Positions 2,448 to 43,032 of a DNA stretch of 60,504 bases are shown here, in pieces; positions within the stretch are counted from its first letter, which is position 1; each line of letters opens with the position of its first letter. Made by a program: the position numbers and the translations under genes. Source of the stretch: Bdellovibrionota bacterium (GTDB taxonomy: Bacteria > Bdellovibrionota > UBA2428); assembly GCA_964201665.1 (NCBI GenBank), contig CAXNEW010000006.1:1-60504 (forward strand). Reading direction: 5' to 3'. Below the pieces are notes generated by a model, which saw only the letters and a list, made by a program, of their open reading frames with translations, had not been told where the DNA came from and did not search any database.

Positions 2448-2901
2448 GTGCTTTGAAGGGAAGAGAAAAATCTTCTTTTAGGGGAACTTCGCTGGGTTCC
2501 TTGAGATCCATTTGCAAGGCATGAACGGTTTTGCCCATGAGGTCTCCAACCAGGTTAAAAATCCACTGTTGCCTTTGCTTGAGGCTTAAGCCTGTGAAAA
2601 CCTCGCTTACAACTTTAATCGCGTAGTGGCCGCCTCCATTTTTAATGGCTTCCTTATGTTTTTTATGAGCTTCAGTGAGTGCGCGCAGCGAGAACTGAGT
2701 TGGAGCGAGGGCCCCTCGAATTCGCCTCATAATGTCTGAAGCAACGGAGTCCTTTTCAAAGAGCGAGGGGGCCGGAACAGCTTTTTTTGTAATTTGATAA
2801 ATTTTTTCAGGCTGAACTCGAGTCAGGCTCGGGGAGGGTTTCTTCGCCATTTTTTTTGCAGGCTTCGTTGTTTTATTTTTTTTGGTCTTTGCTGTGGGCA
2901 T
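2404..2901 (-). CDS. BolA-family protein with Lys-rich N- and C-terminal extensions
   Basis: [45 protein letters not shown] matches BolA; ATG at 2901 lies 6 nt after a TATACT -10 box. Confidence 0.85.
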
Positions 2902-2940
2902 GAGCTCAGTATAAGCCAAAACTCCAAAGATCGTTATCCC

Positions 2941-3231
2941 ATGCCAAGCTTTACCGCCAAAAGATTTATCCTTCAGGGAACTGTCCAGGGGGTGGGCTGT
3001 CGGGCAATCATTCAAGAAATCGTCGAAAACATCGGCCATTTAGCGGGTTTTGTAAGAAACCTGCCAAATGGCACAGTTGAAATTTGTTTAAAGGGCCCGA
3101 GTTGGCGCATGGATGATTTTGAGCGGATTATCCGTACGCAGCTGAGTCCACCGATTAAAATTGAGAGAATCTTAAGTGAAACCCTTCCCGAGGAGTTTAC
3201 GGCAGCAGGGTTTAGGATTTTGAGGGACTGA
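2941..3231 (+). CDS. acyP: Acylphosphatase
   Basis: GTVQGVGCR and GFVRNLPNGTVE signatures; 96 aa from ATG 2941. Confidence 0.9.
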   Translation: MPSFTAKRFILQGTVQGVGCRAIIQEIVENIGHLAGFVRNLPNGTVEICLKGPSWRMDDFERIIRTQLSPPIKIERILSETLPEEFTAAGFRILRD

Positions 3232-3306
3232 TTTTCCTGAGACTTGGTGTTATAAATTTTTTAAGGTCGAGCATGGGCAGTCGGGCAACGAAAAGGGATC
3301 TCAAAA

Positions 3307-3407
3307 GATCGAGCCCAGTGTATAGATCTGTTTGAATCACTACACTTGAGGAAGAACCCGAGCCAGTCCCCTAGAGGACCAAAGCCCTTTCACTCCCCGA
3401 CAAAACG
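3307..3407. repeat. Hairpin-element copy 1 (conserved loop core, non-complementary arms)
   Basis: GAAGAACCCGAGCCAGTCCCCTAGA at 3351-3375 is the exact reverse complement of 5810-5834; GACAAAACG at 3399-3407 is the reverse complement of 12032-12040. Confidence 0.85.
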
Positions 3408-3521
3408 AGCTAACAGGGTTTCCTCTGCATTAAACAAAAATTGTTTACTAGGTGTAGAAAGTTTAGACAGGATCTCTGGTTTAAGTTGTTGAATTAATGA
3501 GTAAAAATTTAAAAATAGAGA

Positions 3522-3537
3522 CGGTACGCCTCTTGCA
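3522..3537 (+). promoter_or_regulatory. Putative sigma54 (-24/-12) promoter of the lipoprotein gene
   Basis: CGGTACG-CCTC-TTGCA; IHF-like TAAGTTGTTGAATT at 3482-3495 and TGT-N11-ACA dyad at 3453-3469 upstream. Confidence 0.6.
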
Positions 3538-3595
3538 TTAAATATCCAAGTACTGGACTCTATTTGTTTTTAAAAAGCTCCAAAGGAGAAAGTAA

Positions 3596-5767
3596 ATGAG
3601 TTTAAATTATACGAAAACTTTCAATGTGTTGGGTGTTGTATTGGCATTGTCCGTTGTGGGATGTTCCAAACGCCCTCAAGCTCCAGTTCCAGTCACTCCT
3701 GCTGAAGATGATCGAGATCGGGTTTCTGTAGATTTGAATATTGGCAAGTATTTGAAGCCAGATTTGTCCCTGGGTGAACAAGAGAAAGTAATTGTTCAGG
3801 AATTATCTGAAGGGAAAAAAATTAGCCATCGTGGGCTTACAGAACTCTTTGTTGCTCGTCATCAAAAAACAAGATCCGAAATTACCGGTGCAGATACCCA
3901 AAGCACCTCAAATTTGGAGACGATCGTGTCTCAGTTGAAGGCAAAGGGTTCAGAATCCCCCGATCAGTTTAAAAAAAGCTTGGAGGAGGTTTTAGCGAGT
4001 GCCTCGGGAAAAAGTCTTGAGAATTTTTCTTATAACCGCGATGCCGTTAATATTTTTGATTATCTCAACGCGGGATTGTTTCAGTGCTATTCGGCGACTT
4101 CTTTATATATGGTTTCACGACGTTCTGTGATTTCGGGAGAAGATTTTCTGAAAGATTCGCCTTTCATAATTTATGAAAGTGGTCATATAAAATCTGGATT
4201 TCGAAATAAAGACGGTCAGGTTGTTGCCCTTGAACATACCGATTTGGGGCCCGCTCGTGAAACATTCACAAGTGAAGCGGAGTTTGAAGAATTCAGGCAG
4301 AGTTGTGATATCCGAGTGGTGGATTCTAATAAGTGGATCTTAAACGAGATTTTTAAAGATTCACTTGATTTAAGTGATGCTGAAAAACGCTTGGCCTATT
4401 TGACCGAAATGTTTGGAGAAAAATACGCCCATTGTTTTGAGGGCCAAAGTCCCATGAGTACAGGCGATGGCTCGGGATCTACAGGACTCAACGGAAGTGA
4501 TTTAGGGTTTGGATCTTCAAATGCCCGTACCGGAAATATTAAGCCTGACTTTAGCGAAGAAAAACTCTTCAAACCGAATCCCGTTAGATTTTCTGGCGGA
4601 GTGTTAGGCTCAGAAAATAATTTGGTTCCAGGTGTTGTTGTAGGGTCTGAGGTTTTTGTTGGAGGGGGTGAAAAACCCAAAGAGCCCGTGGTGATTGATT
4701 CAAAACCTAGCGCTGAAAGTGAAAAACCTTTGGTAAAGAAATTGGAGTTCTATGACCCCCTAACCAAACTCACATGGCTCGATATTCATAGCCCCGAAGC
4801 AGTTAAATCCTTTTATGAAAAGATGAACTCCAAGCCAACCGTTGAGTACGACGGGAAAAAATACCCGGATTATTTTAAAGCAGCCGAAGCTCTTTGTGTA
4901 AGTCTTGGTCTTGAAGCTCCTACCAAAGGAGATTTTTTAATTGCTCTTGGAAATAAAGATAAAGACGTAAATCTGGAGCTTAAAAAAATGCCGGGTATGG
5001 ACGAGGGCTTGTTTTGGACGTCATCGCCAGTGGAAAAGGGCGGTAATTTAATTGCCGCTGAGGAAATTTATCCAATATTGGGGACGATCTTTGTCGTTGA
5101 ACTTGGAAAAGAGGGCTACGCCGATCGTTTCAGCGACGGATTTTCTGTTCGCTGCGTGAGCCGCCCGAAACTGAGCTCCCTAGAACTCAAGGCCGAAATT
5201 CAAAAACTTAAAGGAATTGCGTCCGTAAAAAGTGGGGATGTGATTCTATTCAAGCCTCTCGACTATGAGGAAATCTCTGACAAAGAATTCTTGGCCCGAG
5301 TAAGGCTTCTCAATCAGTTTTTGAAAGTCGCAGATGAGAGGGGCCTTCAAGAAAAAGAAATTGTTGGAGCAAATGTTTACGCAAGTGTTTTCTATGATTT
5401 GAGTTATATCGACTGGTTTGCGAAAAAAATCTTAGGTTCTGAAGGAAATGGTTCCTACAAAAGTCCTGCGGTTGTTTTTTTTGAAAGAGCTCCAGTCGAA
5501 GTTTCACAATACCTTTTTGATAATGGCCGAGGCATGCACACGGGTGGTACCCAATATCTAGGAGCTATTGTTTTTTTAAAAAATGAAATTTGTGCAAAAT
5601 CGGATTTAGATCCTAAGTTTGCCAAGCTCTGCATTGAATTGGCGCAGCATTTGAAGTCGTTATCTTCCGGCGAATGGGGGCCGCGAGGGATCAGTGCGAT
5701 CCATAGCTGGGAAACTGAAAACAAACTTCGCGAGGGTAGGCCCCAGCCCGTACCCAAATGGAAATAA
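3596..5767 (+). CDS. Large lipoprotein: putative transglutaminase-like Cys-His-Glu domain plus DUF1566/Lcl-like lectin-fold domain
   Basis: Lipobox VVGC; QCYSAT..IIYESGHI..ALEHT; YDPLTKLTW..AEALC..FWTSS..FSVRCV; AGGAG RBS. Confidence 0.6.
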   Translation: MSLNYTKTFNVLGVVLALSVVGCSKRPQAPVPVTPAEDDRDRVSVDLNIGKYLKPDLSLGEQEKVIVQELSEGKKISHRGLTELFVARHQKTRSEITGADTQSTSNLETIVSQLKAKGSESPDQFKKSLEEVLASASGKSLENFSYNRDAVNIFDYLNAGLFQCYSATSLYMVSRRSVISGEDFLKDSPFIIYESGHIKSGFRNKDGQVVALEHTDLGPARETFTSEAEFEEFRQSCDIRVVDSNKWILNEIFKDSLDLSDAEKRLAYLTEMFGEKYAHCFEGQSPMSTGDGSGSTGLNGSDLGFGSSNARTGNIKPDFSEEKLFKPNPVRFSGGVLGSENNLVPGVVVGSEVFVGGGEKPKEPVVIDSKPSAESEKPLVKKLEFYDPLTKLTWLDIHSPEAVKSFYEKMNSKPTVEYDGKKYPDYFKAAEALCVSLGLEAPTKGDFLIALGNKDKDVNLELKKMPGMDEGLFWTSSPVEKGGNLIAAEEIYPILGTIFVVELGKEGYADRFSDGFSVRCVSRPKLSSLELKAEIQKLKGIASVKSGDVILFKPLDYEEISDKEFLARVRLLNQFLKVADERGLQEKEIVGANVYASVFYDLSYIDWFAKKILGSEGNGSYKSPAVVFFERAPVEVSQYLFDNGRGMHTGGTQYLGAIVFLKNEICAKSDLDPKFAKLCIELAQHLKSLSSGEWGPRGISAIHSWETENKLREGRPQPVPKWK

Positions 5768-5783
5768 CGAAAAAATACGTATT

Positions 5784-5867
5784 GTCGAGAAACCAACAGG
5801 TATTGAGCTTCTAGGGGACTGGCTCGGGTTCTTCCCCTAGAAGCTCAATACCTGTTGGTTTCTCGAC
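5784..5867. repeat. Hairpin-element copy 2: perfect 35-bp inverted repeat, 14-nt loop CTGGCTCGGGTTCT
   Basis: Arms 5784-5818 and 5833-5867 are exact reverse complements. Confidence 0.95.
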
Positions 5868-5893
5868 TGTCCAAGCTCGACCCATCAACTTCT

Positions 5894-5935
5894 CTAAAGA
5901 TCCCATTCCCAGGCGATGCGGGGGCCGAAGCTGAC
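5894..5935 (-). pseudogene. Duplicated 3' end (VSFGPRIAWEWDL*) of gene 6732-8384; att-like remnant
   Basis: 42-bp direct repeat of 6732-6773 with 6 mismatches, all synonymous third-codon positions. Confidence 0.92.
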
Positions 5936-5995
5936 ATTTAGTAATTTGCTTTGGCCCCTCTTAGGGGATGGCTTTTACAGTACGAGAAATAGGTC

Positions 5996-6024
5996 TTGAA
6001 AAGGGTCTCAATATAGGTCATAAT
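5996..6024 (+). promoter_or_regulatory. sigma70-type leaderless promoter of the TA operon with repeated operator-like boxes
   Basis: TTGAAA-17 bp-CATAAT, 7 nt before ATG 6032; ATAGGTC repeated at 5989-5995 and 6013-6019. Confidence 0.65.
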
Positions 6025-6031
6025 TTAGTCC

Positions 6032-6271
6032 ATGAAAAATCTGAAAATTTCTGAGCTTAAAGCTGGCCTTTCTAAGGCTCTGGAAAGGGTTGAGGCGGGA
6101 GAAGAAATTCTTGTGACCGATCATAATAGACCCATTGCCAGATTGAGTTCTGTAAAAAAGGTTCCACCCTTACCTAAGGAACCCGTAGTTTGGGACTTTG
6201 AGCGATCTGTCCTAAAGAAGGGGTCTCTGTCTTCGCACGAACTTATTCGGAAAATTCGAGATGAAGAATAA
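6032..6271 (+). CDS. Phd/YefM-family antitoxin
   Basis: KISELKAGLSKALERVEAGEEILVTDHNRPIARL; overlaps the downstream toxin. Confidence 0.92.
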   Translation: MKNLKISELKAGLSKALERVEAGEEILVTDHNRPIARLSSVKKVPPLPKEPVVWDFERSVLKKGSLSSHELIRKIRDEE

Positions 6272-6704
6272 GCACCATTTTTATTGGGATACGTCGGCTT
6301 TGGCTTCAATGCTTTTTGGAGAATCCGATGGAAAAAAGCTCATTTCCTGGGCAAAAAAAAATGAAGGTCTTCCGGGATATACATCTTTTTTTACATGGAT
6401 AGAGCTCGAGTCAGCTCTTCAGAGGCGGGTCAATTTAGGCGAAATTATGATCGAAAATTTGCCAAGTGTTCAGCTTGCAATTGAAACCTTAAGTCAAAAT
6501 TTTGCAATTCTTTGGCCTGATGTTTCGGTAACTGCAGAAGCAAAAAGCCAAGTTGCAAAGATGGGTCTTAGGCCTGGTGACGCCCTTCAGCTTGGAAGTG
6601 CCCTACTTGCAAATCGAGAAGTTGGAAATGTGGCTTTTATATGTCTTGATAAAAAACTTTCGCAAGCCGCTGCTGCAAATGGCCTCAGGTGCCCTGAATT
6701 TTAA
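6261..6704 (+). CDS. vapC: VapC-like PIN-domain toxin
   Basis: YWDTSAL, ELESAL, LRPGDALQLGSAL and FICLDKKLSQAA PIN motifs. Confidence 0.9.
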   Translation: MKNKHHFYWDTSALASMLFGESDGKKLISWAKKNEGLPGYTSFFTWIELESALQRRVNLGEIMIENLPSVQLAIETLSQNFAILWPDVSVTAEAKSQVAKMGLRPGDALQLGSALLANREVGNVAFICLDKKLSQAAAANGLRCPEF

Positions 6705-6731
6705 TCATGCACAAGGCGGACTTGTAGGCTG

Positions 6732-8384
6732 CTAAAGATCCCACTCCCATGCGATGCGTGGTCCAAAGCTTACCTGAGTGAAAACCGTTCGGCGGCCTCG
6801 GCTTGTGAGGCCATTGTGGAGGGCTTCGCCCTCGCTGTGGGAGAGTCTTTCGGCTTTGAAGTTGGCGCCGATAAGAAAGCGATGGACGTCTCCAATTTTT
6901 CTCCGCACAAAAAGATCTAAATCTATGTTGTATGGAAAAAAATAATAAGGGCGGCCCCGACCAAAGTAGTCACCCTTATCCATAAAAAGTGGAAAATAAA
7001 GATAAAGCGCCGAGGATAGATCATACTTGGCTTTCCAGCCTCCCCATCTGATTTCTCCGCCTGCAACTAAACTCACAAGACCATAGTCAATAATATCCAT
7101 TGAGTAAGGTTCGACAGAATTTTTTGGACGGGCCTGTTCTAGACGCCGATAGGAGAGCAAACCCTTGAGCAAAATGGGTAGAGTGCCACCCCAGGGTTCC
7201 CATTTGTAGGTGGGACCCAGGTCAAGCTGTCGATGCACAATTGCAAAAGGCTGATGGGTCGTACCATAAAGAGAGTTTGAGTTATCAAATTTGAATCTAT
7301 CGTACCTAAATAAAATTTCACTACCCCAAGGATTCCAGATTTGACTTTGAACTCGACTGCCGACTGAGAAGGCCCCGATGGGATCTAGAAGTCCCTGATT
7401 TGTAATTTTTTCAAAGCCTGTCATTTGGTCGTTAGAAAGAGACCTCGTTCCCCATGTGGGACCACCAGAAATAAAGCGCCAGGTTGTTCCAATGTATTGC
7501 GAGTGAAAACCCATGGGATCTTGCTCGACTAAAATAGTTACGCTTTCTTGGGAGAGCTGTTTTTCGTCAATATAATCTTTAACCGTAATTTGATAGCGGC
7601 CGGGAGGCAGAGGAGGTAACCAACTTTCAGTTTCACCAGAAACTTCAAGGTGCGTTATGCGTCCGGCGGGCGAGGGTTCAATGCGATAGATATGTATTTG
7701 TGATTCTTCACCGGGGACCGTTCGAATCCACCTCAGTTTGTGGGGCTCAAATGCTGTTAAAATATCTCGCTCCACGGGAAACAAAATTCGAGGATTGCTT
7801 GAGGGTTTAATTCGAATTTGAAACTGAGAGATTGCGGAATCTGAAATAACTGAGCCAAGGGCTCGCGCCGAAATTTTTACTTTCCAGTTACCCTCAATGT
7901 TTTGTGGTAACTGAAACCTGGTTAAGTTCACGATTTTGACTTCAAAATTCTTTTCCCCCGGCTTTTGAACTTCAACCTGGTAGTCTTCTGCGCCCTTGAC
8001 TCCCTTCCATTCCACAACAATCGGAATGGATAGTGATGAGATTTCAATTGTTTCGTCTTGTTTTGGCGAACGAAGCTCGGGACTTTGAGATTTAACGAGT
8101 TTTTTAACTGCCGGAGACCAAGCACCAGCCAATCCCCCCTTGTCGAGAGGCCGTACTCTAAAAAAATAAAGGCCCGCTGGAATTTGGCTATTGAAAATAG
8201 GATTTTGACTTTCTCCCTGACGGATTAAAGTGTCTGGTTTAAAACTGCCGTCAGTAGAGAGTTCGAATTCGTAAGCTTGGGCTCCGGGAATAGGGTTCCA
8301 GCGAATCTCGAGTTCGTCGGCCCAAGCAAAACTTGAAAAGCTGAGTCCTAATGTAAACACCAAACTCAAAAAAAATTTAAACAT
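6732..8384 (-). CDS. Secreted/outer-membrane protein: tandem Fn3-like domains plus C-terminal beta-barrel-like region
   Basis: Signal peptide; WNPIPGAQAYEFELS..YFFRVR..WS Fn3 pattern; alternating aromatic strands ending IAWEWDL. Confidence 0.65.
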   Translation of the reverse strand: MFKFFLSLVFTLGLSFSSFAWADELEIRWNPIPGAQAYEFELSTDGSFKPDTLIRQGESQNPIFNSQIPAGLYFFRVRPLDKGGLAGAWSPAVKKLVKSQSPELRSPKQDETIEISSLSIPIVVEWKGVKGAEDYQVEVQKPGEKNFEVKIVNLTRFQLPQNIEGNWKVKISARALGSVISDSAISQFQIRIKPSSNPRILFPVERDILTAFEPHKLRWIRTVPGEESQIHIYRIEPSPAGRITHLEVSGETESWLPPLPPGRYQITVKDYIDEKQLSQESVTILVEQDPMGFHSQYIGTTWRFISGGPTWGTRSLSNDQMTGFEKITNQGLLDPIGAFSVGSRVQSQIWNPWGSEILFRYDRFKFDNSNSLYGTTHQPFAIVHRQLDLGPTYKWEPWGGTLPILLKGLLSYRRLEQARPKNSVEPYSMDIIDYGLVSLVAGGEIRWGGWKAKYDLSSALYLYFPLFMDKGDYFGRGRPYYFFPYNIDLDLFVRRKIGDVHRFLIGANFKAERLSHSEGEALHNGLTSRGRRTVFTQVSFGPRIAWEWDL

Positions 8385-11918: not shown

Positions 11919-11994
11919 GAAAAATAAAAGAGATACCTTCTTTGGGGGAAGAACCCGAGCCAGTCCCCCAAAGAAGGTATCTCTTTTATTTTTC
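11919..11994. repeat. Hairpin-element copy 3: perfect 31-bp inverted repeat, loop AGAACCCGAGCCAG
   Basis: Arms 11919-11949 and 11964-11994 are exact reverse complements; may also act as a terminator. Confidence 0.95.
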
Positions 11995-12037: not shown

Positions 12038-12121
12038 GTCAGACTGATTACAAGTCTTAGGTTCCTAGGGGACTGGCTCGGGTTCTTCCCCTAGGAGCCT
12101 AAGACTTGTAATCAGTCTGAC
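12038..12121. repeat. Hairpin-element copy 4: 35-bp inverted repeat (one G-T pair), loop CTGGCTCGGGTTCT
   Basis: Arms 12038-12072 and 12087-12121. Confidence 0.95.
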
Positions 12122-36323: not shown

Positions 36324-36767
36324 ATGAGTTTAGAAGTTAGTGCTGAACTTCTGCTTAGGCTTCAAGGGGACCACCTGGAAGCGGTTCAAAATCCCTGGTC
36401 ACTCAGTGAATTTCAAAAAACCTTAGCCCAGCCCCAGTCCCGAATTTTTTTCTGGCCCCATAAAAAAAAGCCCGAGGGTTTTATTCTTTGTTTTGAAAAT
36501 TTTAAAGACGCACACAATCTCGAAATTGAAATCTTGCACCTTGCGGTTGAAGTCAAAAATCAAGGAAATGGATTTCGAATGTTTGAAAAATTTTTAGCCG
36601 ATACAAAAACCCAGGCTAAAGAAACTGTTGTTTTTTTAGATGTAAACCCAAAAAATTTGAGCGCCCTCAAACTCTACAAAAAGTTAGGTTTTTTGCAGGT
36701 CGGCGTTCGCCAAAAGTATTACAAAACGGGCGACGACGCATGGCTAATGAAATTCTTAGTTAAGTGA
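36324..36767 (+). CDS. rimI: RimI-like GNAT acetyltransferase
   Basis: NPWS, EILHLAV..QGNG, FLDVNPKNLSALKLYKKLGF..RQKYY..DDAWLM. Confidence 0.88.
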   Translation: MSLEVSAELLLRLQGDHLEAVQNPWSLSEFQKTLAQPQSRIFFWPHKKKPEGFILCFENFKDAHNLEIEILHLAVEVKNQGNGFRMFEKFLADTKTQAKETVVFLDVNPKNLSALKLYKKLGFLQVGVRQKYYKTGDDAWLMKFLVK

Positions 36768-36931
36768 ATAATCCTAGTTGAATCCAGTACCAAGGAGGAC
36801 CCCTCAAATGAATAAATAGGGTTCGTTTGTGGGGGGGGCGAGATACATGGGTTGTGTTTGCTCAATCTCACTCTACACTATGTTGAGTTTTTCTTGACTC
36901 ACTAAGCATTGAACGGGCAGGTTCCGCCTCC

Positions 36932-37786
36932 ATGAATACAGACACCGACAATGCCGATTACCGGCAGCGGCTTAAACTTGAGCTTGAGCAACGCTTGAGT
37001 CTAAATCCCCGGTACTCACTTCGGGCCTTTGCGCGCGATTTGGGTATTTCTCCCTCCCGTTTGTCACATGTGCTTAAAGGCAAATTTGGTCTTTCGGAAT
37101 CAGCTGGTGAAGGAATTGCAGCCAAGCTTGGCTTGAATGCAACCGAAACGGGCGCGTTTGTGAACAGTATTTCTGCCCAACACGGTCGATCGGGTATTCG
37201 TCGGGAAACAGCGCGCAGACGGCTCGAATCATTGCGAAAAGAAATCACCGAACTGACAGCTGATTCCTTTATGCTTATTTCTTAGTGGTATCATCTTGCT
37301 TTGCTGGAGCATTTCTCTGGCAGCCAAGCCACTGCAGATCGTTCTGAACTTGCCTTTCAGTTTCAGGTGAGTACCCTGCAGATTTCTGCGGCTCTAGAAC
37401 GTATGTGTCGATTGGGAATTCTTGAAAAGAAAAAGGAAACCTTTAAACCGACGGGATCCTTTTACGTTAATCCCCTAGGCACGCCTTCGGAAGCCGTTCG
37501 AAATTTTCATAAACAAATTCTGCAGAAGGCTCTCCTTTCGCTTTCTCAAACAAGTGTTGAAGCTCGCGACATGGGCGCTGTGATTCTTAACTTCGATCCC
37601 GCCCAAATGCCAAAGGCAAGAAAAGTGATTAAAGATTTTCGAATTCAATTTGAAAATTCATTTAATGCGAGTTCGGAAAAAACAAAAAGTGTTTATGTTC
37701 TTTCGACAAATCTTTTTGCTCTAAGTCAGCCCCCGGTACCCAAAAAAGCCCTTTCCCCAAGCACCCCTAAAAGGAAAAATATATGA
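36932..37786 (+). pseudogene. TIGR02147/DUF4423-like HTH protein interrupted by an in-frame TAG (37283-37285)
   Basis: NPRYSLRAFARDLGISPSRLS; ..LIS*WYHLALLE..; AVRNFHKQIL..VYVLSTNLFAL; both ORFs are in the same frame. Confidence 0.8.
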
Positions 37787-40056
37787 AAACATTAAACCCT
37801 CTAAAACTCCTCGTGCTTTTACTGTGTGCGGGTTTTATCACCCACTTAAGTCATGCACAAACAAGGTCGCCCCTTAACAAGGGGGGTGGGCAACATGTAG
37901 GAAACGGTGGCGACGTCGTTTTTTGCCCATCGGGGCAACCTTTCCAGATTATGGCTCTTGATCTTTACGAGGCTATGGTGCGATTTAAATCCAAAAAACA
38001 GTTGGTATCCATTAACTGGCAACTTGCAAAAGACGATGAGCATCCCGAAGGTTTCAAAAATATTGGAGCCGAAGACCTTGCCTACAAACTTTTGGCTAAA
38101 GATATCCAAATCCCAATTCCTCAGCGGCAAGTTTTACAAGTGGGAATAGAAAATTGGACAAGTCAGGCGGCATTTCTAGAAGACATTGAACTCAACGATG
38201 TCCCTGATTCTCAACATGTAGGTATTCCCGAGGGCTGTAAGATTCGACAGCTCGTCGTGCAGGGCCCGCTTGTGGGACTCAATTTCAACCTGCAAGATAT
38301 TTACTATATTGTGGATCAAGCTCTTTGGGCCATGCTCCCTCGATTCCAGCAAGCTATGATGATTCTACATGAAATGTATTATCGCGATGAAGTTTTGCGC
38401 GGGGCCACTAACAGTCTCATCACGCGTTTCATTGTGGGCTCGATTGCTACTGAGTTTCTACAAAAAACCAAAGACGAGAAAACCGAAAATTTCAGTCTAA
38501 GGGGCTATGTTATTCCACAAGTTCTAATTGATCGAGCTGATACCACTGAGTGGAAATGGACAAATCTCGGGCTTGTGCACAAAGAAAAAGATTTGGTCTG
38601 GTGCCAAGGTGGGCTCAGTTTCGGCGGGGTGATGGTTGCGGATTCAATTCCGCAATTTGAAACCTTCGAATCTCAGCACCTGGTAAGTATTGAACATAAC
38701 AACCTTCTTCAGGACTGCTTCAGCAGCATGGGGCATAGGCGATGGCACCCAAGAACAAAATTCTCACGAAAAGTTTTTGTAGCGGACTCGAGTGGTGAAA
38801 AACTCGAGTACAGAGAAGTAACTTCGGAGGTGGTCCAGGTCGCGCTGAGCCCTGAGCAAATTGCGACCCGAAATTCCTCGTTCGATTCAGCTTTTTTTAT
38901 TGATAAAGTTGATTTTTTTGAACTCCCTCCTTTTCCGAGTTCCTTGCTTTCGCTAGATTCGCAATCCAAGAAACCTGAGATCTCTGAAAAGGAAGAGGCA
39001 GCTTCCCGAGACTCGCCTTCCAGCTTGCAGTTTGTTTTTGCACCTCGACCCAATCGATTGATTCAGGTGCTTGGGCAAAATATCGACCTGAGTCAGGGGG
39101 CAATCGCAGATATAACCTTTAAAGGAAAAGAGGGAGCAGGCCTTTCGCTTGCAAACTCAAAAGGTGTAAATATTCCTTTTTTCACTGAGCTCCAAGTGGC
39201 AGGGATTTCAACAAGCCAAAAAATCGGAATTTCAAGGTTAGAGTTCCACACAGTAAATGATGGATTTGGATATCAAGATATTTTGAGTCTCAACTTAGTT
39301 GAAGGTTCGGCTATTGAAGTTGAGACCGGACATCTCACTCGACCTTTTGCAAGGGCCTTTGTAGCGAAGTTAAAGTGCACGGGCGATCTGCCTATAAGTT
39401 TTTTAGCTAAAAACAATGTATTGGCCTTTTATAAGGCCTCTAATTTGTGTCGGCCGCTTGAGAATCTTCCCTCAGAAAGCGAGATAAAAGAAGTAACATT
39501 CGATTCGTGGAGTTATTGGGACATGGTTGGAAAAAAAGATTTTAGCTTTTCGGTAGGTGCGAATCCGTCAGGCTTACAGTTTCCAAAAAGGATTGTTTTT
39601 GACGATGCCAGAAACTTAAAGATTCGGTGGGGAATTAGCGAAATCTGGATTCCGGCCAAAGAGGTTTCAGGTAATCTGGTTAAGCTTGGTAACGTGTCAG
39701 AGAAATCAACGCTAAAGTTCAAGGGCTCCCCAGGTCCTGGAAGGCTGAAGTCACTCGCTGAACCTTCAGGAGTAAATGAATTTAAAGTCATGCTTCAGTC
39801 TGGAGCCACAATAAAAATGGGCTCTGAAAGTAAGGTCGACATTTTACCTGTGGCATCCACAGAATTAATTCCCGCGGCGTGGCGTGACGGTTCTGAGAAG
39901 GTCGTTTTGAAATGGTTGGAGTTTGATGACGAAAACCCACGCGGATATTTTTTACTCTCATATACTGAATCACTTAAAGAACAGGCGGCTGTTTTCATCG
40001 ATAGCTACGAGACTCAAAGTGGCTTTAGATCGCAGCCTTTGGAGCCTTTAAAGTAA
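37783..40056 (+). CDS. Large secreted hypothetical protein with N-terminal GG..VGNGGD motif
   Basis: Signal peptide; GGGQHVGNGGDVVFC, LDLYEA, GCKIRQLVVQ, ILHEMYY; ATGA overlap with the regulator. Confidence 0.7.
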   Translation: MKTLNPLKLLVLLLCAGFITHLSHAQTRSPLNKGGGQHVGNGGDVVFCPSGQPFQIMALDLYEAMVRFKSKKQLVSINWQLAKDDEHPEGFKNIGAEDLAYKLLAKDIQIPIPQRQVLQVGIENWTSQAAFLEDIELNDVPDSQHVGIPEGCKIRQLVVQGPLVGLNFNLQDIYYIVDQALWAMLPRFQQAMMILHEMYYRDEVLRGATNSLITRFIVGSIATEFLQKTKDEKTENFSLRGYVIPQVLIDRADTTEWKWTNLGLVHKEKDLVWCQGGLSFGGVMVADSIPQFETFESQHLVSIEHNNLLQDCFSSMGHRRWHPRTKFSRKVFVADSSGEKLEYREVTSEVVQVALSPEQIATRNSSFDSAFFIDKVDFFELPPFPSSLLSLDSQSKKPEISEKEEAASRDSPSSLQFVFAPRPNRLIQVLGQNIDLSQGAIADITFKGKEGAGLSLANSKGVNIPFFTELQVAGISTSQKIGISRLEFHTVNDGFGYQDILSLNLVEGSAIEVETGHLTRPFARAFVAKLKCTGDLPISFLAKNNVLAFYKASNLCRPLENLPSESEIKEVTFDSWSYWDMVGKKDFSFSVGANPSGLQFPKRIVFDDARNLKIRWGISEIWIPAKEVSGNLVKLGNVSEKSTLKFKGSPGPGRLKSLAEPSGVNEFKVMLQSGATIKMGSESKVDILPVASTELIPAAWRDGSEKVVLKWLEFDDENPRGYFLLSYTESLKEQAAVFIDSYETQSGFRSQPLEPLK

Positions 40057-40075
40057 AACAGCGTGAGCCACGAGG

Positions 40076-40183
40076 CTTTATGAAAAGTTCAAATTCATCC
40101 AGGTTGGAGTCCGTAAGAAATATTACAAAACGGGCGACGACGCATGGGTGATGAAAAGGGAATGTTTAGGTTTTCAACCCTGA
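40076..40183 (+). pseudogene. Second copy of the rimI 3' end (att-like remnant)
   Basis: Translates LYEKFKFIQVGVRKKYYKTGDDAWVMK..*; 27 bp (40121-40147) identical to 36717-36743. Confidence 0.92.
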
Positions 40184-40230: not shown

Positions 40231-42903
40231 ATGAAGATTCTTTCGGGTTTCAAAAAAGTAACCGTTTTTTGTTTGATTCTTTTGGTGGTCGTTTCGACTC
40301 CACCCGTAGTCGCTGGGCCTGAAACCCAAATTGTTATCTCAGATGCTGCATTCGAAGTTTCTGAGGGTTTCGACTTCAATTTGGGCATACCCGACCATTT
40401 AACTGAGCCGCGGGATCGAAAATTCTACATGTTGGTCCGTGAAAAAAATTCGGACTTTCACTTAAGAAGACTGTTTGAAAATGAACTTTTTAAGCTCGAA
40501 TACAAGCCCGAAAACAGAGTCTTGTTTGATGCCCAACTGGCAAGCTTTACTCAGCGATTTCCCCAACTTTTAAAAGGGCATCTTGAACAGACACTCAAAG
40601 AATTCCCGCACACGGGGCAGAATGTGGAGGGAGGTCGGATTCTAACAATTCCACAGGGGCTTGAATTTTGGATTCGATTGGTGAGCCATCCCAACCCCGA
40701 AAAGAAAGTAGCGGGACTCATTTTTTTGGCCCGCCCCTTTGCTGACGATTTATCAGGATTGCCTGGCCGGCTGGTAGAACTTTTGACGGATACCCATTCG
40801 CCAAAAACTCAGATTCTACGATCGGATCAGTTTACTGAAAAGGAAATGCAGATTCTGATTCAGTTCGCCCAGACAAAGGAGTTTTCTGTTTCTAAACACG
40901 GAAACTATGTACTTATTGGCAAGGGTCAGAGTTTTGACCTTTTTCGAGAGTTGTTTTTTGAAGCCAAAAAATTAGTGGATCCTGTGCTTCAAACGAAATT
41001 TGTGAGAGTTTTAAATTTTCTTTCATCCCAGGGAATCAGCGTCGAAATGGACGAGAACCAGGGTGCCGCTGCGTATTTTGCCCTTGGCCAAAAGAGAATT
41101 GCCTTTGTTATGCCAAGTCGAATTGATCTCGATACTCTCACTCATGAAGCCACCCATGGGCGATTTGATAGGTTTTTAGAAACCTTTGGCAAATGGATTC
41201 GTGGCAAAAACTACGCCGTACCTTACGAAGTTGATGGGCCCTCAAACGCGATTTTTTCGAATTTTGGGGGCTATATGAGCCTTCTCAACGAACTGAATTC
41301 TTGGCGTGTCGGTAGTTCGTTTTCAGATAAACTGACCGATGAGGAGATTTTGAAAATTCTCGAAGAGTCTTACGGGCGCCAAGCCGGATTTAAAGCGGCC
41401 AACGATTTTGACAATCTGTGGCCAGCCTCTCGCGTGGAAAACAAATCTGTTCCCTCTCTCATTGTTGAGGCCACCCGAAGTCTCAATGAAATGTCGAATT
41501 CTCAGGTTCTGGATTACGGCAAAAGATCTCTGACCACTCAAGACGAAATGGGACAACATAATTTTCTGCGACTGGTGCTAGCGCGATTTAAACCAGACAT
41601 GATTCCAGATGATCTATTAGAGGTTGTAGCCGCTTTTCAGCACCAGGGTTCGATTAAGAGGGTTCGAGACCTCGCACAAAGGGTTTTTGAGCGTAGGCTT
41701 CCCAAATTTGATTCTCCTGCTAAAGAGCCCCTCGATGCTGTAGCGATTGTCCCTCAGCAGTTTGACGCCCTTTGGAAAGAATTTCTGAATGAACCCACCT
41801 CCGAAATTAACGATGCGTTGGTTGAGAGTCATTCTCGACATTTTCGCGCCGAGCATCTTAGAAAATTATTCGCCCTAGCTTTTGACGATGAACAACAGGG
41901 AGATCATCGGACTCAAGCGTTTAAACTGCTGGAAGCCCTCTTTGAAAAACTGGGATTTGATTGTATCTACGAACCCTCAGAATATTCCGGGATGGTGGCC
42001 TTACAGCAATCGATGAACCGGACGAATAATCGGCCGCTCGATGCGGACCTCCCCGTCTCAAGACCGAGCAACCCCACTCATTGGCTGTTCAATACTCAGA
42101 CTGACGCCCTTATTGCTGAAAAAATGTTTAACGGAAGGCCCGGAGCTTATCGTCTGGATTTGATTAATTTTATTACGAGTCACACTTATCCCGGTGAATT
42201 GCCATTGCTGGGTAGGCGTCTAGTTGATGTGATTAGTCGCGATGGGGCACTTCTAGACAAAAATGATTTTTGGGTGGCCCGTATGTTTTTGGTTCCAGCT
42301 AAATCGATTATGTATAAAACTCATTTGGTGTGGGGTGAGTTCGTTGCTAACGCTGTGATGAATGATCAAAGCCCCCAGCCCACAGCACTCGAGTTTGTGG
42401 CAGAGTTCTATCGCCTGGCCGTCAGCAAGGTCTTGCCCCTAAGAGTTACGCGAGTTTCCATGACGGGAAGGTTAGATGAAACAGTTCGTCGTGATTTCAA
42501 AGCCAGTTTAAGAAAGGCGACATCGCGACAGAAATTCCTTCTTAAAAAAGGGACACAAACACTTTGGCAACTTTTGGGGAATGAGAGCGTACAAATCAGA
42601 AGAGCAGCTAGATACGCGATTGCATCGCATCCTGGTTTTTTACTTGAACTGGAATCTTCTTTAATTAAATCGCTAAAAGGCTCTAACGCCATCTATCGGA
42701 CCGAGGCCATCTCTCTGATTTCTTATGTGAAGCCGGGATTTTTTTCGAAAATTGATCGAGTTTTGGATGACCCCACTATGACACTAACCCCGGAGGAGAA
42801 AGCAATATTGAGTTTAAGACGATCTCCTCAGAGTCAAGTTTCAAACTGCTCCGAAAGCCTTTTCCAAGTTGTTATAGAATTGCCGAAAAGAAAGATTATT
42901 TAA
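40231..42903 (+). CDS. Large secreted hypothetical protein with HExxH motif and HEAT-like C-terminus
   Basis: Signal peptide; LTHEATHG plus downstream LLNELNS; LLGNESVQIRRAARYAI. Confidence 0.65.
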   Translation: MKILSGFKKVTVFCLILLVVVSTPPVVAGPETQIVISDAAFEVSEGFDFNLGIPDHLTEPRDRKFYMLVREKNSDFHLRRLFENELFKLEYKPENRVLFDAQLASFTQRFPQLLKGHLEQTLKEFPHTGQNVEGGRILTIPQGLEFWIRLVSHPNPEKKVAGLIFLARPFADDLSGLPGRLVELLTDTHSPKTQILRSDQFTEKEMQILIQFAQTKEFSVSKHGNYVLIGKGQSFDLFRELFFEAKKLVDPVLQTKFVRVLNFLSSQGISVEMDENQGAAAYFALGQKRIAFVMPSRIDLDTLTHEATHGRFDRFLETFGKWIRGKNYAVPYEVDGPSNAIFSNFGGYMSLLNELNSWRVGSSFSDKLTDEEILKILEESYGRQAGFKAANDFDNLWPASRVENKSVPSLIVEATRSLNEMSNSQVLDYGKRSLTTQDEMGQHNFLRLVLARFKPDMIPDDLLEVVAAFQHQGSIKRVRDLAQRVFERRLPKFDSPAKEPLDAVAIVPQQFDALWKEFLNEPTSEINDALVESHSRHFRAEHLRKLFALAFDDEQQGDHRTQAFKLLEALFEKLGFDCIYEPSEYSGMVALQQSMNRTNNRPLDADLPVSRPSNPTHWLFNTQTDALIAEKMFNGRPGAYRLDLINFITSHTYPGELPLLGRRLVDVISRDGALLDKNDFWVARMFLVPAKSIMYKTHLVWGEFVANAVMNDQSPQPTALEFVAEFYRLAVSKVLPLRVTRVSMTGRLDETVRRDFKASLRKATSRQKFLLKKGTQTLWQLLGNESVQIRRAARYAIASHPGFLLELESSLIKSLKGSNAIYRTEAISLISYVKPGFFSKIDRVLDDPTMTLTPEEKAILSLRRSPQSQVSNCSESLFQVVIELPKRKII

Positions 42904-42933: not shown

Positions 42934-43032
42934 TTGTTTAAAAAATTCAAGTTTTTTCAGGTTAGAGTCGGAGTGAAATACTATATGAATGGGGACGACG
43001 CATGGCTGATGTTAACGGAAATGAGCTTTTAA
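42934..43032 (+). pseudogene. Third, more decayed copy of the rimI 3' end, overlapping the pyrK start
   Basis: Translates LFKKFKFFQVRVGVKYYMNGDDAWLMLTEMSF*; contains the pyrK ATG at 43002. Confidence 0.85.

Follow-up and report, generated by a model that had tools for sequence, protein, structure and literature searches.

A 60,504-nt stretch of DNA (hereafter, the window), which is contig 6 of a Bdellovibrionota metagenome bin (1.81 Mb in 95 contigs, 68% complete), carries a predicted toxin-antitoxin (TA) pair behind a gene for a 550-aa secreted protein, here called gene X. The TA pair is bracketed by two copies of the last 13 codons and the stop codon of gene X. All differences between the copies are synonymous, and the two tails look like functional alleles under purifying selection, not like a decayed local duplicate. 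Such duplications recur at three core genes of this genome. We consider, with a probability of about one half, that a tail-flanked TA pair was imported from a related lineage by host recombination, for which a recombinase encoded by the insert would be unnecessary.

Two Alleles of the Gene X End

Positions 5894-5935 and 6732-6773 form a 42-nt direct repeat with 36 of 42 bases identical and a spacing of 838 nt. The working tail of gene X is the copy at 6732-6773, which comprises the final 13 codons and the TAG stop of the 550-aa minus-strand open reading frame (ORF) at 6732-8384. The copy at 5894-5935, also on the minus strand, is untranslated, and no ORF of 40 aa or more ends at it. The six mismatches (plus-strand positions 5906/6744, 5912/6750, 5921/6759, 5924/6762, 5927/6765, and 5933/6771) are all at third codon positions and synonymous (GAG/GAA, GCA/GCC, CCA/CCC, GGA/GGC, TTT/TTC, and GTA/GTC; functional copy/remnant). 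Either copy encodes the peptide VSFGPRIAWEWDL before the stop codon. For six of six differences on the 13 third positions among 39 coding sites, P = 5.3e-4. An earlier inspection of the letters alone (the sequence-only reading) had described a 42-bp gene-end duplication with six all-synonymous differences, and its coordinates, the 36/42 identity and the codon pairs were reproduced.

To place this match in the genome, the last 13 residues of 1,560 ORFs were matched to all stop-anchored peptides up to 15 kb away. A 13/13 match was found once in 664,118 downstream comparisons, at the gene X locus, and not at all in 669,164 upstream and 1,349,904 opposite-strand control comparisons. Only two control matches reached 8/13 or more, and these came from a tandem paralogue and an internal protein repeat. 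The gene X tails are similar from codon -13 to the stop codon and not beyond either point. Since no gene X similarity extends past the 13 codons, the fragment at 5894 is not the end of a longer decayed paralogue, a possibility that the sequence-only reading itself had raised. Furthermore, an independent Logan contig from run X1, the probable source, spans 5838-8199 with zero differences. Thus, the structure is not an assembly join.

The C-terminus of gene X, a protein with no Pfam match, shows alternating hydrophobic residues, and this pattern is kept in 5/5 orthologues at about 30% identity (endings such as NFNFGLEWDL and FMPNFSWDL before the stop codon). The single relative with 58% identity, found among 5.8 billion proteins, ends in SIGPRLGWEWDL before its stop codon. 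Judged from these endings, the tail is strongly constrained. Between the two copies, the synonymous difference (pS) is 6.0/8.0, so that silent sites are near saturation, and the non-synonymous difference (pN) is 0/31. The longest identical run is 12 nt, and no significant identity block was detected. We also simulated divergence in place, letting the remnant change neutrally and restricting the working copy to silent changes; six all-synonymous differences appeared in about 0.3% of the runs (P ~0.003). The near-saturated silent sites, the absence of replacement changes and the constrained tail together suggest that both copies evolved as working gene ends in separate lineages. These values agree with the allelic tails that the sequence-only reading had proposed. 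As for direction, the displaced tail (5894-5935) may be the resident, older gene end, and the working tail (6732-6773) may have come with the insert.

A relative in a second lake metagenome (run X2) shows 12/151 differences over 6771-6921 vs 0/151 over 6961-7111 (Fisher p 0.0004). This step is a weak hint that the imported tract reaches past the duplicated 42 nt. The contigs of run X2 cover both flanking genes and none covers 5574-6743, which gives no evidence of an empty site. The X2 relative is a mosaic against window positions 5136-7769, in five short contigs of 100% down to about 88% identity, and its listed differences within gene X are mostly at third codon positions. In the contigs of four runs (X1-X4), which drop rare forms, no joint across the insert was found; runs X3 and X4 matched only short unrelated pieces.

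The Insert and Its Predicted Toxin-Antitoxin Pair

The interval between the two tail copies is 796 bp and contains a promoter-like site and an overlapping TA pair. This agrees with the sequence-only reading, which had given roughly 800 bp holding only a promoter and the TA pair. The upstream insert edge (5936-6031, plus strand) has a terminator-like hairpin at 5955-5967 and the promoter-like site TTGAAA-17-CATAAT at 5996-6024, 7 nt ahead of the antitoxin start; three promoter-like sites were found in the region vs 1.1 expected. The antitoxin gene (6032-6271, plus strand, 79 aa) belongs to the Phd/YefM family, with matches above cut-off to PF02604 (E 4.2e-10, 39.7 bits, cut-off 29.8) and TIGR01552 (E 1.3e-8, 34.1 bits, cut-off 20.8). 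The gene for a PIN-domain (VapC-type) toxin follows (6261-6704, plus strand, 147 aa; PF01850, E 3.9e-8, 34.4 bits, cut-off 23.6). The two genes overlap by 11 nt and form a small bicistronic operon with the antitoxin first. At the other insert edge, a 27-nt spacer (6705-6731) separates the toxin stop from the stop codon of gene X, with which the TA pair is convergent. D10, E48, D107, and D130 of the toxin are invariant in 14 aligned homologues; we take them to be the catalytic acidic residues. A Phd/YefM-fold antitoxin, followed by an overlapping PIN toxin with four acidic residues, is the arrangement of VapBC-type type II TA systems. Thus, the pair is predicted to be an ordinary VapBC-type module.

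A search of 19 genomes of the same family at E<=1e-5 found the PIN gene in none of them. Among the 5.8 billion proteins, only 14 other clusters matched it, and the best match (78% identity) is on a 787-nt contig. The PIN relatives are few and scattered, mostly in Elusimicrobia metagenome-assembled genomes (MAGs; about 40-48% identity). In 17 TA loci taken from species-representative genomes, most are again from Elusimicrobia MAGs (44-48% identity) and three are Bdellovibrio-like (29-41%). No match of the TA family was found on plasmids, phages or viral contigs. The G+C content of the insert is 42% and its codon usage is unremarkable. Because the PIN gene was not found in the 19 family genomes and its relatives are few and scattered, the distribution marks the TA pair as accessory DNA.

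A gene-tail duplication flanks the TA family in one of the 17 other loci (L016). In this Deltaproteobacteria MAG (region 2668-7284), a TA pair 47% identical to ours shares a 4-kb insert with a gene for an AAA ATPase and one for a 421-aa protein, and the insert is bracketed by a duplication of about 40 nt of a thioredoxin-like gene tail (PLTHALGCSIKWA and TLTHAIGCSIKWA, each before a stop codon). In a Bdellovibrio MAG (L024), a homologous TA pair and a gene for a 601-aa lipoprotein lie between 133-nt non-coding direct repeats (2527-2659 and 5261-5393, 93% identical). The neighbors of this unit are a gene pair of the nucleotidyltransferase type and a gene for an AAA ATPase. With one tail scar in 17 other loci and a non-coding repeat at L024, the TA pair is cargo and not the agent of insertion.

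The sequence-only reading had placed the TA pair on a mini-cassette that replaced the gene end. The accessory nature of the pair (0/19 relatives) and the allelic tails stand. The self-contained mobile unit is not supported, since four inserts in this genome have no common end motif and the TA family is tail-flanked at only one of 17 other loci. An imperfect inverted repeat, reported by the same reading at 5921-5931 / 5947-5957, exists one base off, at 5921-5931 / 5948-5958, with 10/11 complementarity. However, it is not significant (fold z -1.0, with 31/200 shuffles folding as well; local-alignment p ~0.04), and no counterpart was found at three other junctions (p 0.08-0.23).

Recurrence at spoT and rimI

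We searched the last 35 residues of the 1,560 ORFs against their surroundings with tblastn, setting aside tandem paralogues and one repeat protein. Tandem paralogues explained most of the other tail matches in the genome. Six orphan tail remnants were found at five loci (gene X, spoT, rimI twice, contig 2, and contig 49). The sequence-only reading had pointed to the same signature at rimI; there a third-position excess is seen (P 0.002 and 0.0008), and this genome-wide search adds spoT.

The spoT gene on contig 45, a match to the RelA/SpoT family above cut-off, has a 1.06-kb insert between two copies of its 57-nt tail. The one gene in this insert encodes a secreted protein of 298 aa without a known family. 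The two tails agree throughout the first 27 coding bases, and the eight coding differences are all in the last 27 (P 0.004). They lead to one amino-acid change, I/V.

The rimI-like acetyltransferase gene is in the window (36324-36767, plus strand), and its working tail starts at 36672. Behind a 3.3-kb three-gene insert (36768-40075) lies a first displaced tail (40076-40153, plus strand). A second displaced tail (42934-43011, plus strand) lies behind a 2.8-kb one-gene insert and overlaps the start of a pyrK-like gene (43002). In pairwise comparisons of the three tails, 13/19, 18/28, and 11/22 differences are at third positions (P 0.002, 0.0008, and 0.08). The working tail is the newest of the three alleles. 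The duplications are 42 nt at gene X, 57 nt at spoT and about 78 nt at rimI.

The other two remnants are genuine tail copies, though of a different kind or ambiguous. A 294-nt insert on contig 2, built from a repeated 231-nt element and devoid of genes, separates a gene from a 39-nt copy of its tail. This copy has two coding differences, each of them non-synonymous, and therefore looks like decay in place. In this region (41319-42633), the 231-nt repeat (97% identical, including a hairpin with a conserved loop) flanks a 161-aa gene, and the second repeat copy is followed by the 39-nt copy of the tail of that gene. On contig 49 (10440-11862), a diverged tail copy of a 591-aa gene (9/13 residues) lies 1.26 kb downstream. 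Directly after it, at the contig end, come 112 nt that repeat the beginning of the intervening gene perfectly. This copy is ambiguous between a tandem unit and strain variation in the assembly.

tRNA genes are classic integrase targets, and partial 3'-end copies were found near at least seven of them in this genome. A 137-nt gene-less element (88% identical between copies) lies directly behind tRNA-Pro and tRNA-Ser (contig 44, 5843-6006; contig 59, 61-338). After each copy, the 3' end of the tRNA in question is repeated perfectly, over 28 nt for tRNA-Pro and over 64 nt, including downstream sequence, for tRNA-Ser. Partial 3'-end copies also lie 100-900 nt from at least five further tRNA genes.

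As a control, 400 kb of a relative (G002; 658 ORF tails) gave no orphan remnant, and its one 11/13 match was a full paralogue. Since zero remnants would be expected 41% of the time at the rate of the present genome, this control is uninformative.

Uninterrupted Sites in Relatives

The collection searched contains no congener of this genome, and the family relatives are distant. In the 19 relatives searched (E<=1e-10), four hold the pyrK-like gene, and in 4/4 rimI lies directly upstream of it, overlapping or abutting its start. The second rimI remnant overlaps the pyrK-like start just as rimI does in these relatives. Thus, the outermost remnant is native and the working rimI tail is imported. 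The genes of the rimI inserts are absent or nearly so in the relatives (0/19, and 2/19 weak matches).

At spoT, miaA lies tail-to-tail within 1.5 kb in 11/17 relatives' loci, and the inserted genes are present in none of the 17. The ending EVLPLK is common to both spoT tails of the present genome and was found in 0/17 relatives, which suggests that the spoT donor was close kin of the recipient. Between miaA and the displaced spoT tail lies another gene (contig 45, 7528-8616), whose 362-aa product belongs to no known family. As this gene is missing from 17/17 relatives' spoT loci, the miaA-spoT gap took up at least two separate accessory genes.

Synteny of the upstream partner gene is kept in all five orthologous gene X loci of family relatives (5/5). 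No TA pair was found in these loci, and their downstream neighbors are not conserved. Since the orthologues are only about 30% identical and the downstream side is unconserved, the gene X site is uninformative at such a distance. A protein-guided scan of metagenome contigs gave 48 pattern matches, none of them a gene X relative, and a degenerate pattern of the gene X tail gave no match. The sequence-only reading had looked to relatives for empty sites. They exist at rimI (4/4) and spoT (11/17), whereas the relatives of gene X are only distant. Orphan tails beside the same genes in relatives were not detected in 179 ORF tails (26 loci, 1.5-kb flanks).

Search for a Recombinase

No integrase or transposase was found in or near any of the four inserts (gene X, spoT, and rimI twice). 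Only two proteins of the assembled genome match PF00589 (tyrosine recombinases); they score best against the XerD and XerC models, but below the equivalog cut-off in each case. Integron-integrase models gave only weak secondary matches of these two Xer-like proteins. No match to Resolvase (PF00239), rve, Y1_Tnp, IS110 or TnpB was detected in the 68%-complete genome. The 10-mers common to the ends of six inserts were chance matches only, and the four inserts have no common end motif.

A transposon or insertion sequence was also considered and rejected: there is no transposase-family match in the assembled genome, no inverted repeat bounds the insert, and the duplications, at 42, 57, and about 78 nt, are neither short nor of fixed length.

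Origin of the Insert

In the reading that we favor, the 796 bp of DNA with the Phd/YefM-PIN pair would have entered gene X by recombination within its final 13 codons. The donor would be a related lineage in which the TA pair already stood behind the same gene, so that the insert carried the donor's gene end. The imported tail (6732-6773) would complete gene X, and the resident tail (5894-5935) would be displaced 838 bp downstream, beside the old terminator hairpin. One side of the exchange would be homologous pairing in gene X; the other may be an illegitimate or very-short-homology join within the resident tail, by homology-facilitated illegitimate recombination or by a Campbell-like single crossover. 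An existing tail-flanked insert could then pass among relatives by ordinary homologous recombination, and further inserts could stack, as at rimI. The tail would be supplied with the insert because the tail of gene X is strongly constrained, and the TA pair would favor retention of the insert. The donor, the enzymology and, by analogy only, the direction at gene X are what we infer. Host-recombination routes are favored by the lack of a recombinase at the inserts, the kinship of the donor and the three unrelated protein targets.

Several observations weigh against this reading. Between the gene X tails, no identical run exceeds 12 bases, and silent sites are almost saturated, which makes RecA pairing within the tail unlikely. 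Neither codon usage nor G+C content separates the two tails or flags the tails or the insert as foreign. In the collections searched, no gene X relative closer than 58% protein identity was found, nor any close relative with an empty site or a donor arrangement for this gene. The divergence step seen in run X2 comes from contigs at a depth of 2-4. Because the genome is 68% complete, an integrase may be unassembled. In addition, the two rimI remnants share their first rimI codon, as expected from a fixed att core; blocks of perfect identity (29 nt at spoT, 27 nt at rimI) lie inside the otherwise diverged tails; and the 3'-end copies near at least seven tRNA genes stand on the same side.

These last three points fit a site-specific integrative element, as a remnant or in a non-autonomous form similar to cis-mobilizable elements (CIMEs). 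Its attP would have included a version of the gene X tail, and a tyrosine or serine integrase, encoded at another place or lost by now, would have recombined it with the resident tail in the way of e14 at icd. In favor of this explanation, the similarity at gene X stops exactly at the stop codon, and in the middle rimI tail the sites to the left and right of a mid-tail point are grouped differently (left 6 vs 9, right 7 vs 1; p 0.07), which is suggestive of a Campbell-like mosaic. On the other hand, the four inserts are without an integrase, and the assembled genome has only XerC/XerD-like enzymes. Three unrelated protein-gene targets and many tRNAs would need many specificities, the insert ends have no common sequence, and the longest identity between the gene X tails is 12 nt. 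We regard this explanation as a serious one, with roughly a third of the weight. The sequence-only reading had preferred a general mechanism to a site-specific integrase; this preference goes beyond what is shown, since the genome is 68% complete and the common rimI remnant codon and the tRNA duplications fit site-specific integration equally well. A duplication of 42 identical bases at the target site, with the copies then diverging in place, is improbable. Long target duplications do flank restriction-modification units without mobility genes (PMC2853133), the 39-nt duplication on contig 2 has the non-synonymous differences that decay predicts, and the 137-nt element at two tRNA genes is followed each time by the tRNA's own 3' end at 100% identity. 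However, a neutral remnant should change at all codon positions, six all-synonymous differences have a simulated chance of only ~0.003, and the same synonymous bias is present at spoT and rimI. Still less probable, to the point of being very doubtful, is a decayed piece of a tandem paralogue or an assembly artefact joining two strains. Most other tail matches in this genome are tandem paralogues, and the genome is a metagenome bin. Nevertheless, the similarity stops after 13 codons, the TA pair fills the space between the copies, the independent contig over 5838-8199 has no differences, and 12 nt of identity between the copies is too little to mislead an assembler.

Beyond import by host recombination at gene X, a broader and more speculative idea, which we think rather unlikely, is that gene tails serve as portable homology arms of a cassette shuttle without a dedicated recombinase. 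Small accessory units would then move between related lineages on spare core-gene ends of 13-30 codons. If this were true, the cargo would include the TA pair, secreted proteins and regulators; entry would be by host recombination, inserts would stack in tandem, and addiction modules would stabilize the scar.

The Hairpin Downstream of the Displaced Tail

A perfect 35-bp hairpin (5784-5867) lies between gene X and the convergent gene W, 26 nt past the displaced tail. It is probably the original shared terminator of the two genes. A search of 5600-6900 with Rfam gave only sub-threshold hairpin matches.

This hairpin belongs to a genome-wide family with a conserved loop of 14-16 nt (core ACTGGCTCGGGTTC). 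The stems are perfectly paired over 20-41 bp, and their sequences are almost wholly different between copies. The core has 19 matches in the genome, 15 of them with stems of at least 20 pairs. In the window, copies are at 5784-5867, 11921-11994, and 12038-12119, with a half copy near 3354; others are on contigs 2, 4, 7, 10, 12, 18, 30, 56, 62, and 84. None of the stemmed copies is within a gene that is clearly real, although one overlaps a 137-aa ORF of doubtful status, and the only plainly genic core match has no stem. The flanks are short and conserved (ACGTATTG / CTGYC). Rfam gave only sub-threshold miRNA-hairpin matches for the family.

Comparison with Known Systems

CIMEs are integrase-less, att-flanked elements that accrete in tandem at tRNA genes. 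The present inserts are likewise small, integrase-less and placed between copies of a gene 3' end; two are stacked at rimI, and tRNA 3'-end duplications are present as well. Unlike CIMEs, the inserts described here are flanked by protein-coding tails with silent divergence, and no cognate integrase or conserved att arms were found.

In 2000, Nobusato reportedly described the insertion with long target duplication of restriction-modification gene units. According to Furuta, Abe and Kobayashi (2010; PMC2853133), restriction-modification units without mobility genes are flanked by direct duplications of more than 30 bp, some of which overlap the 3' end of a gene. The gene X insert is similar to this extent, in that 42 nt (>30 bp) flank a small addictive unit without a mobility gene. 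However, the repeats in the table rows of PMC2853133 to which we refer are 93-100% identical and are read as target duplications, whereas the gene X tails are 86% identical with silent differences only. This points to two alleles, unlike the restriction-modification target duplications. The premise of a long target duplication, that both copies come from one recipient target, does not fit gene X (in-place P ~0.003).

A second likeness is to effector-immunity and Rhs loci of the type VI secretion system, where orphaned 3' regions are ascribed to homology-facilitated illegitimate recombination (PMC5361080). As at gene X, a conserved upstream anchor is kept, a module takes the gene end, the old 3' part is displaced, and modules can stack. 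These loci swap variable toxin ends together with immunity genes, whereas at gene X the peptide is the same and the cargo is unrelated to the target.

A close arrangement is that of the cryptic prophage e14 in E. coli icd. In the account of PMC13626634, which cites Hill et al. (1989), the element-borne end completes the gene and the old end is stranded as the pseudogene icdC; most differences between the two ends are silent or conservative. At both loci, the insert is in the 3' end of a housekeeping-type gene, the gene is kept intact by the insert-side tail, and a direct repeat brackets the insert. In contrast, e14 is 15 kb long, has its own integrase and excises on SOS induction, while the gene X insert is 796 bp and has no recombinase. 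The gene X scar is of an already known kind of gene transfer and resembles e14 at icd minus the integrase. The locus is a clean and statistically supported case in which accessory genes enter a streamlined genome through a constrained gene end, with a working replacement for that end. Its value lies in the three targets in one genome, the uninterrupted sites in relatives for two of them, and the absence of an integrase nearby. The lineage is therefore suited to testing a dedicated integrase against ordinary host recombination, a question that bears on the spread of TA pairs.

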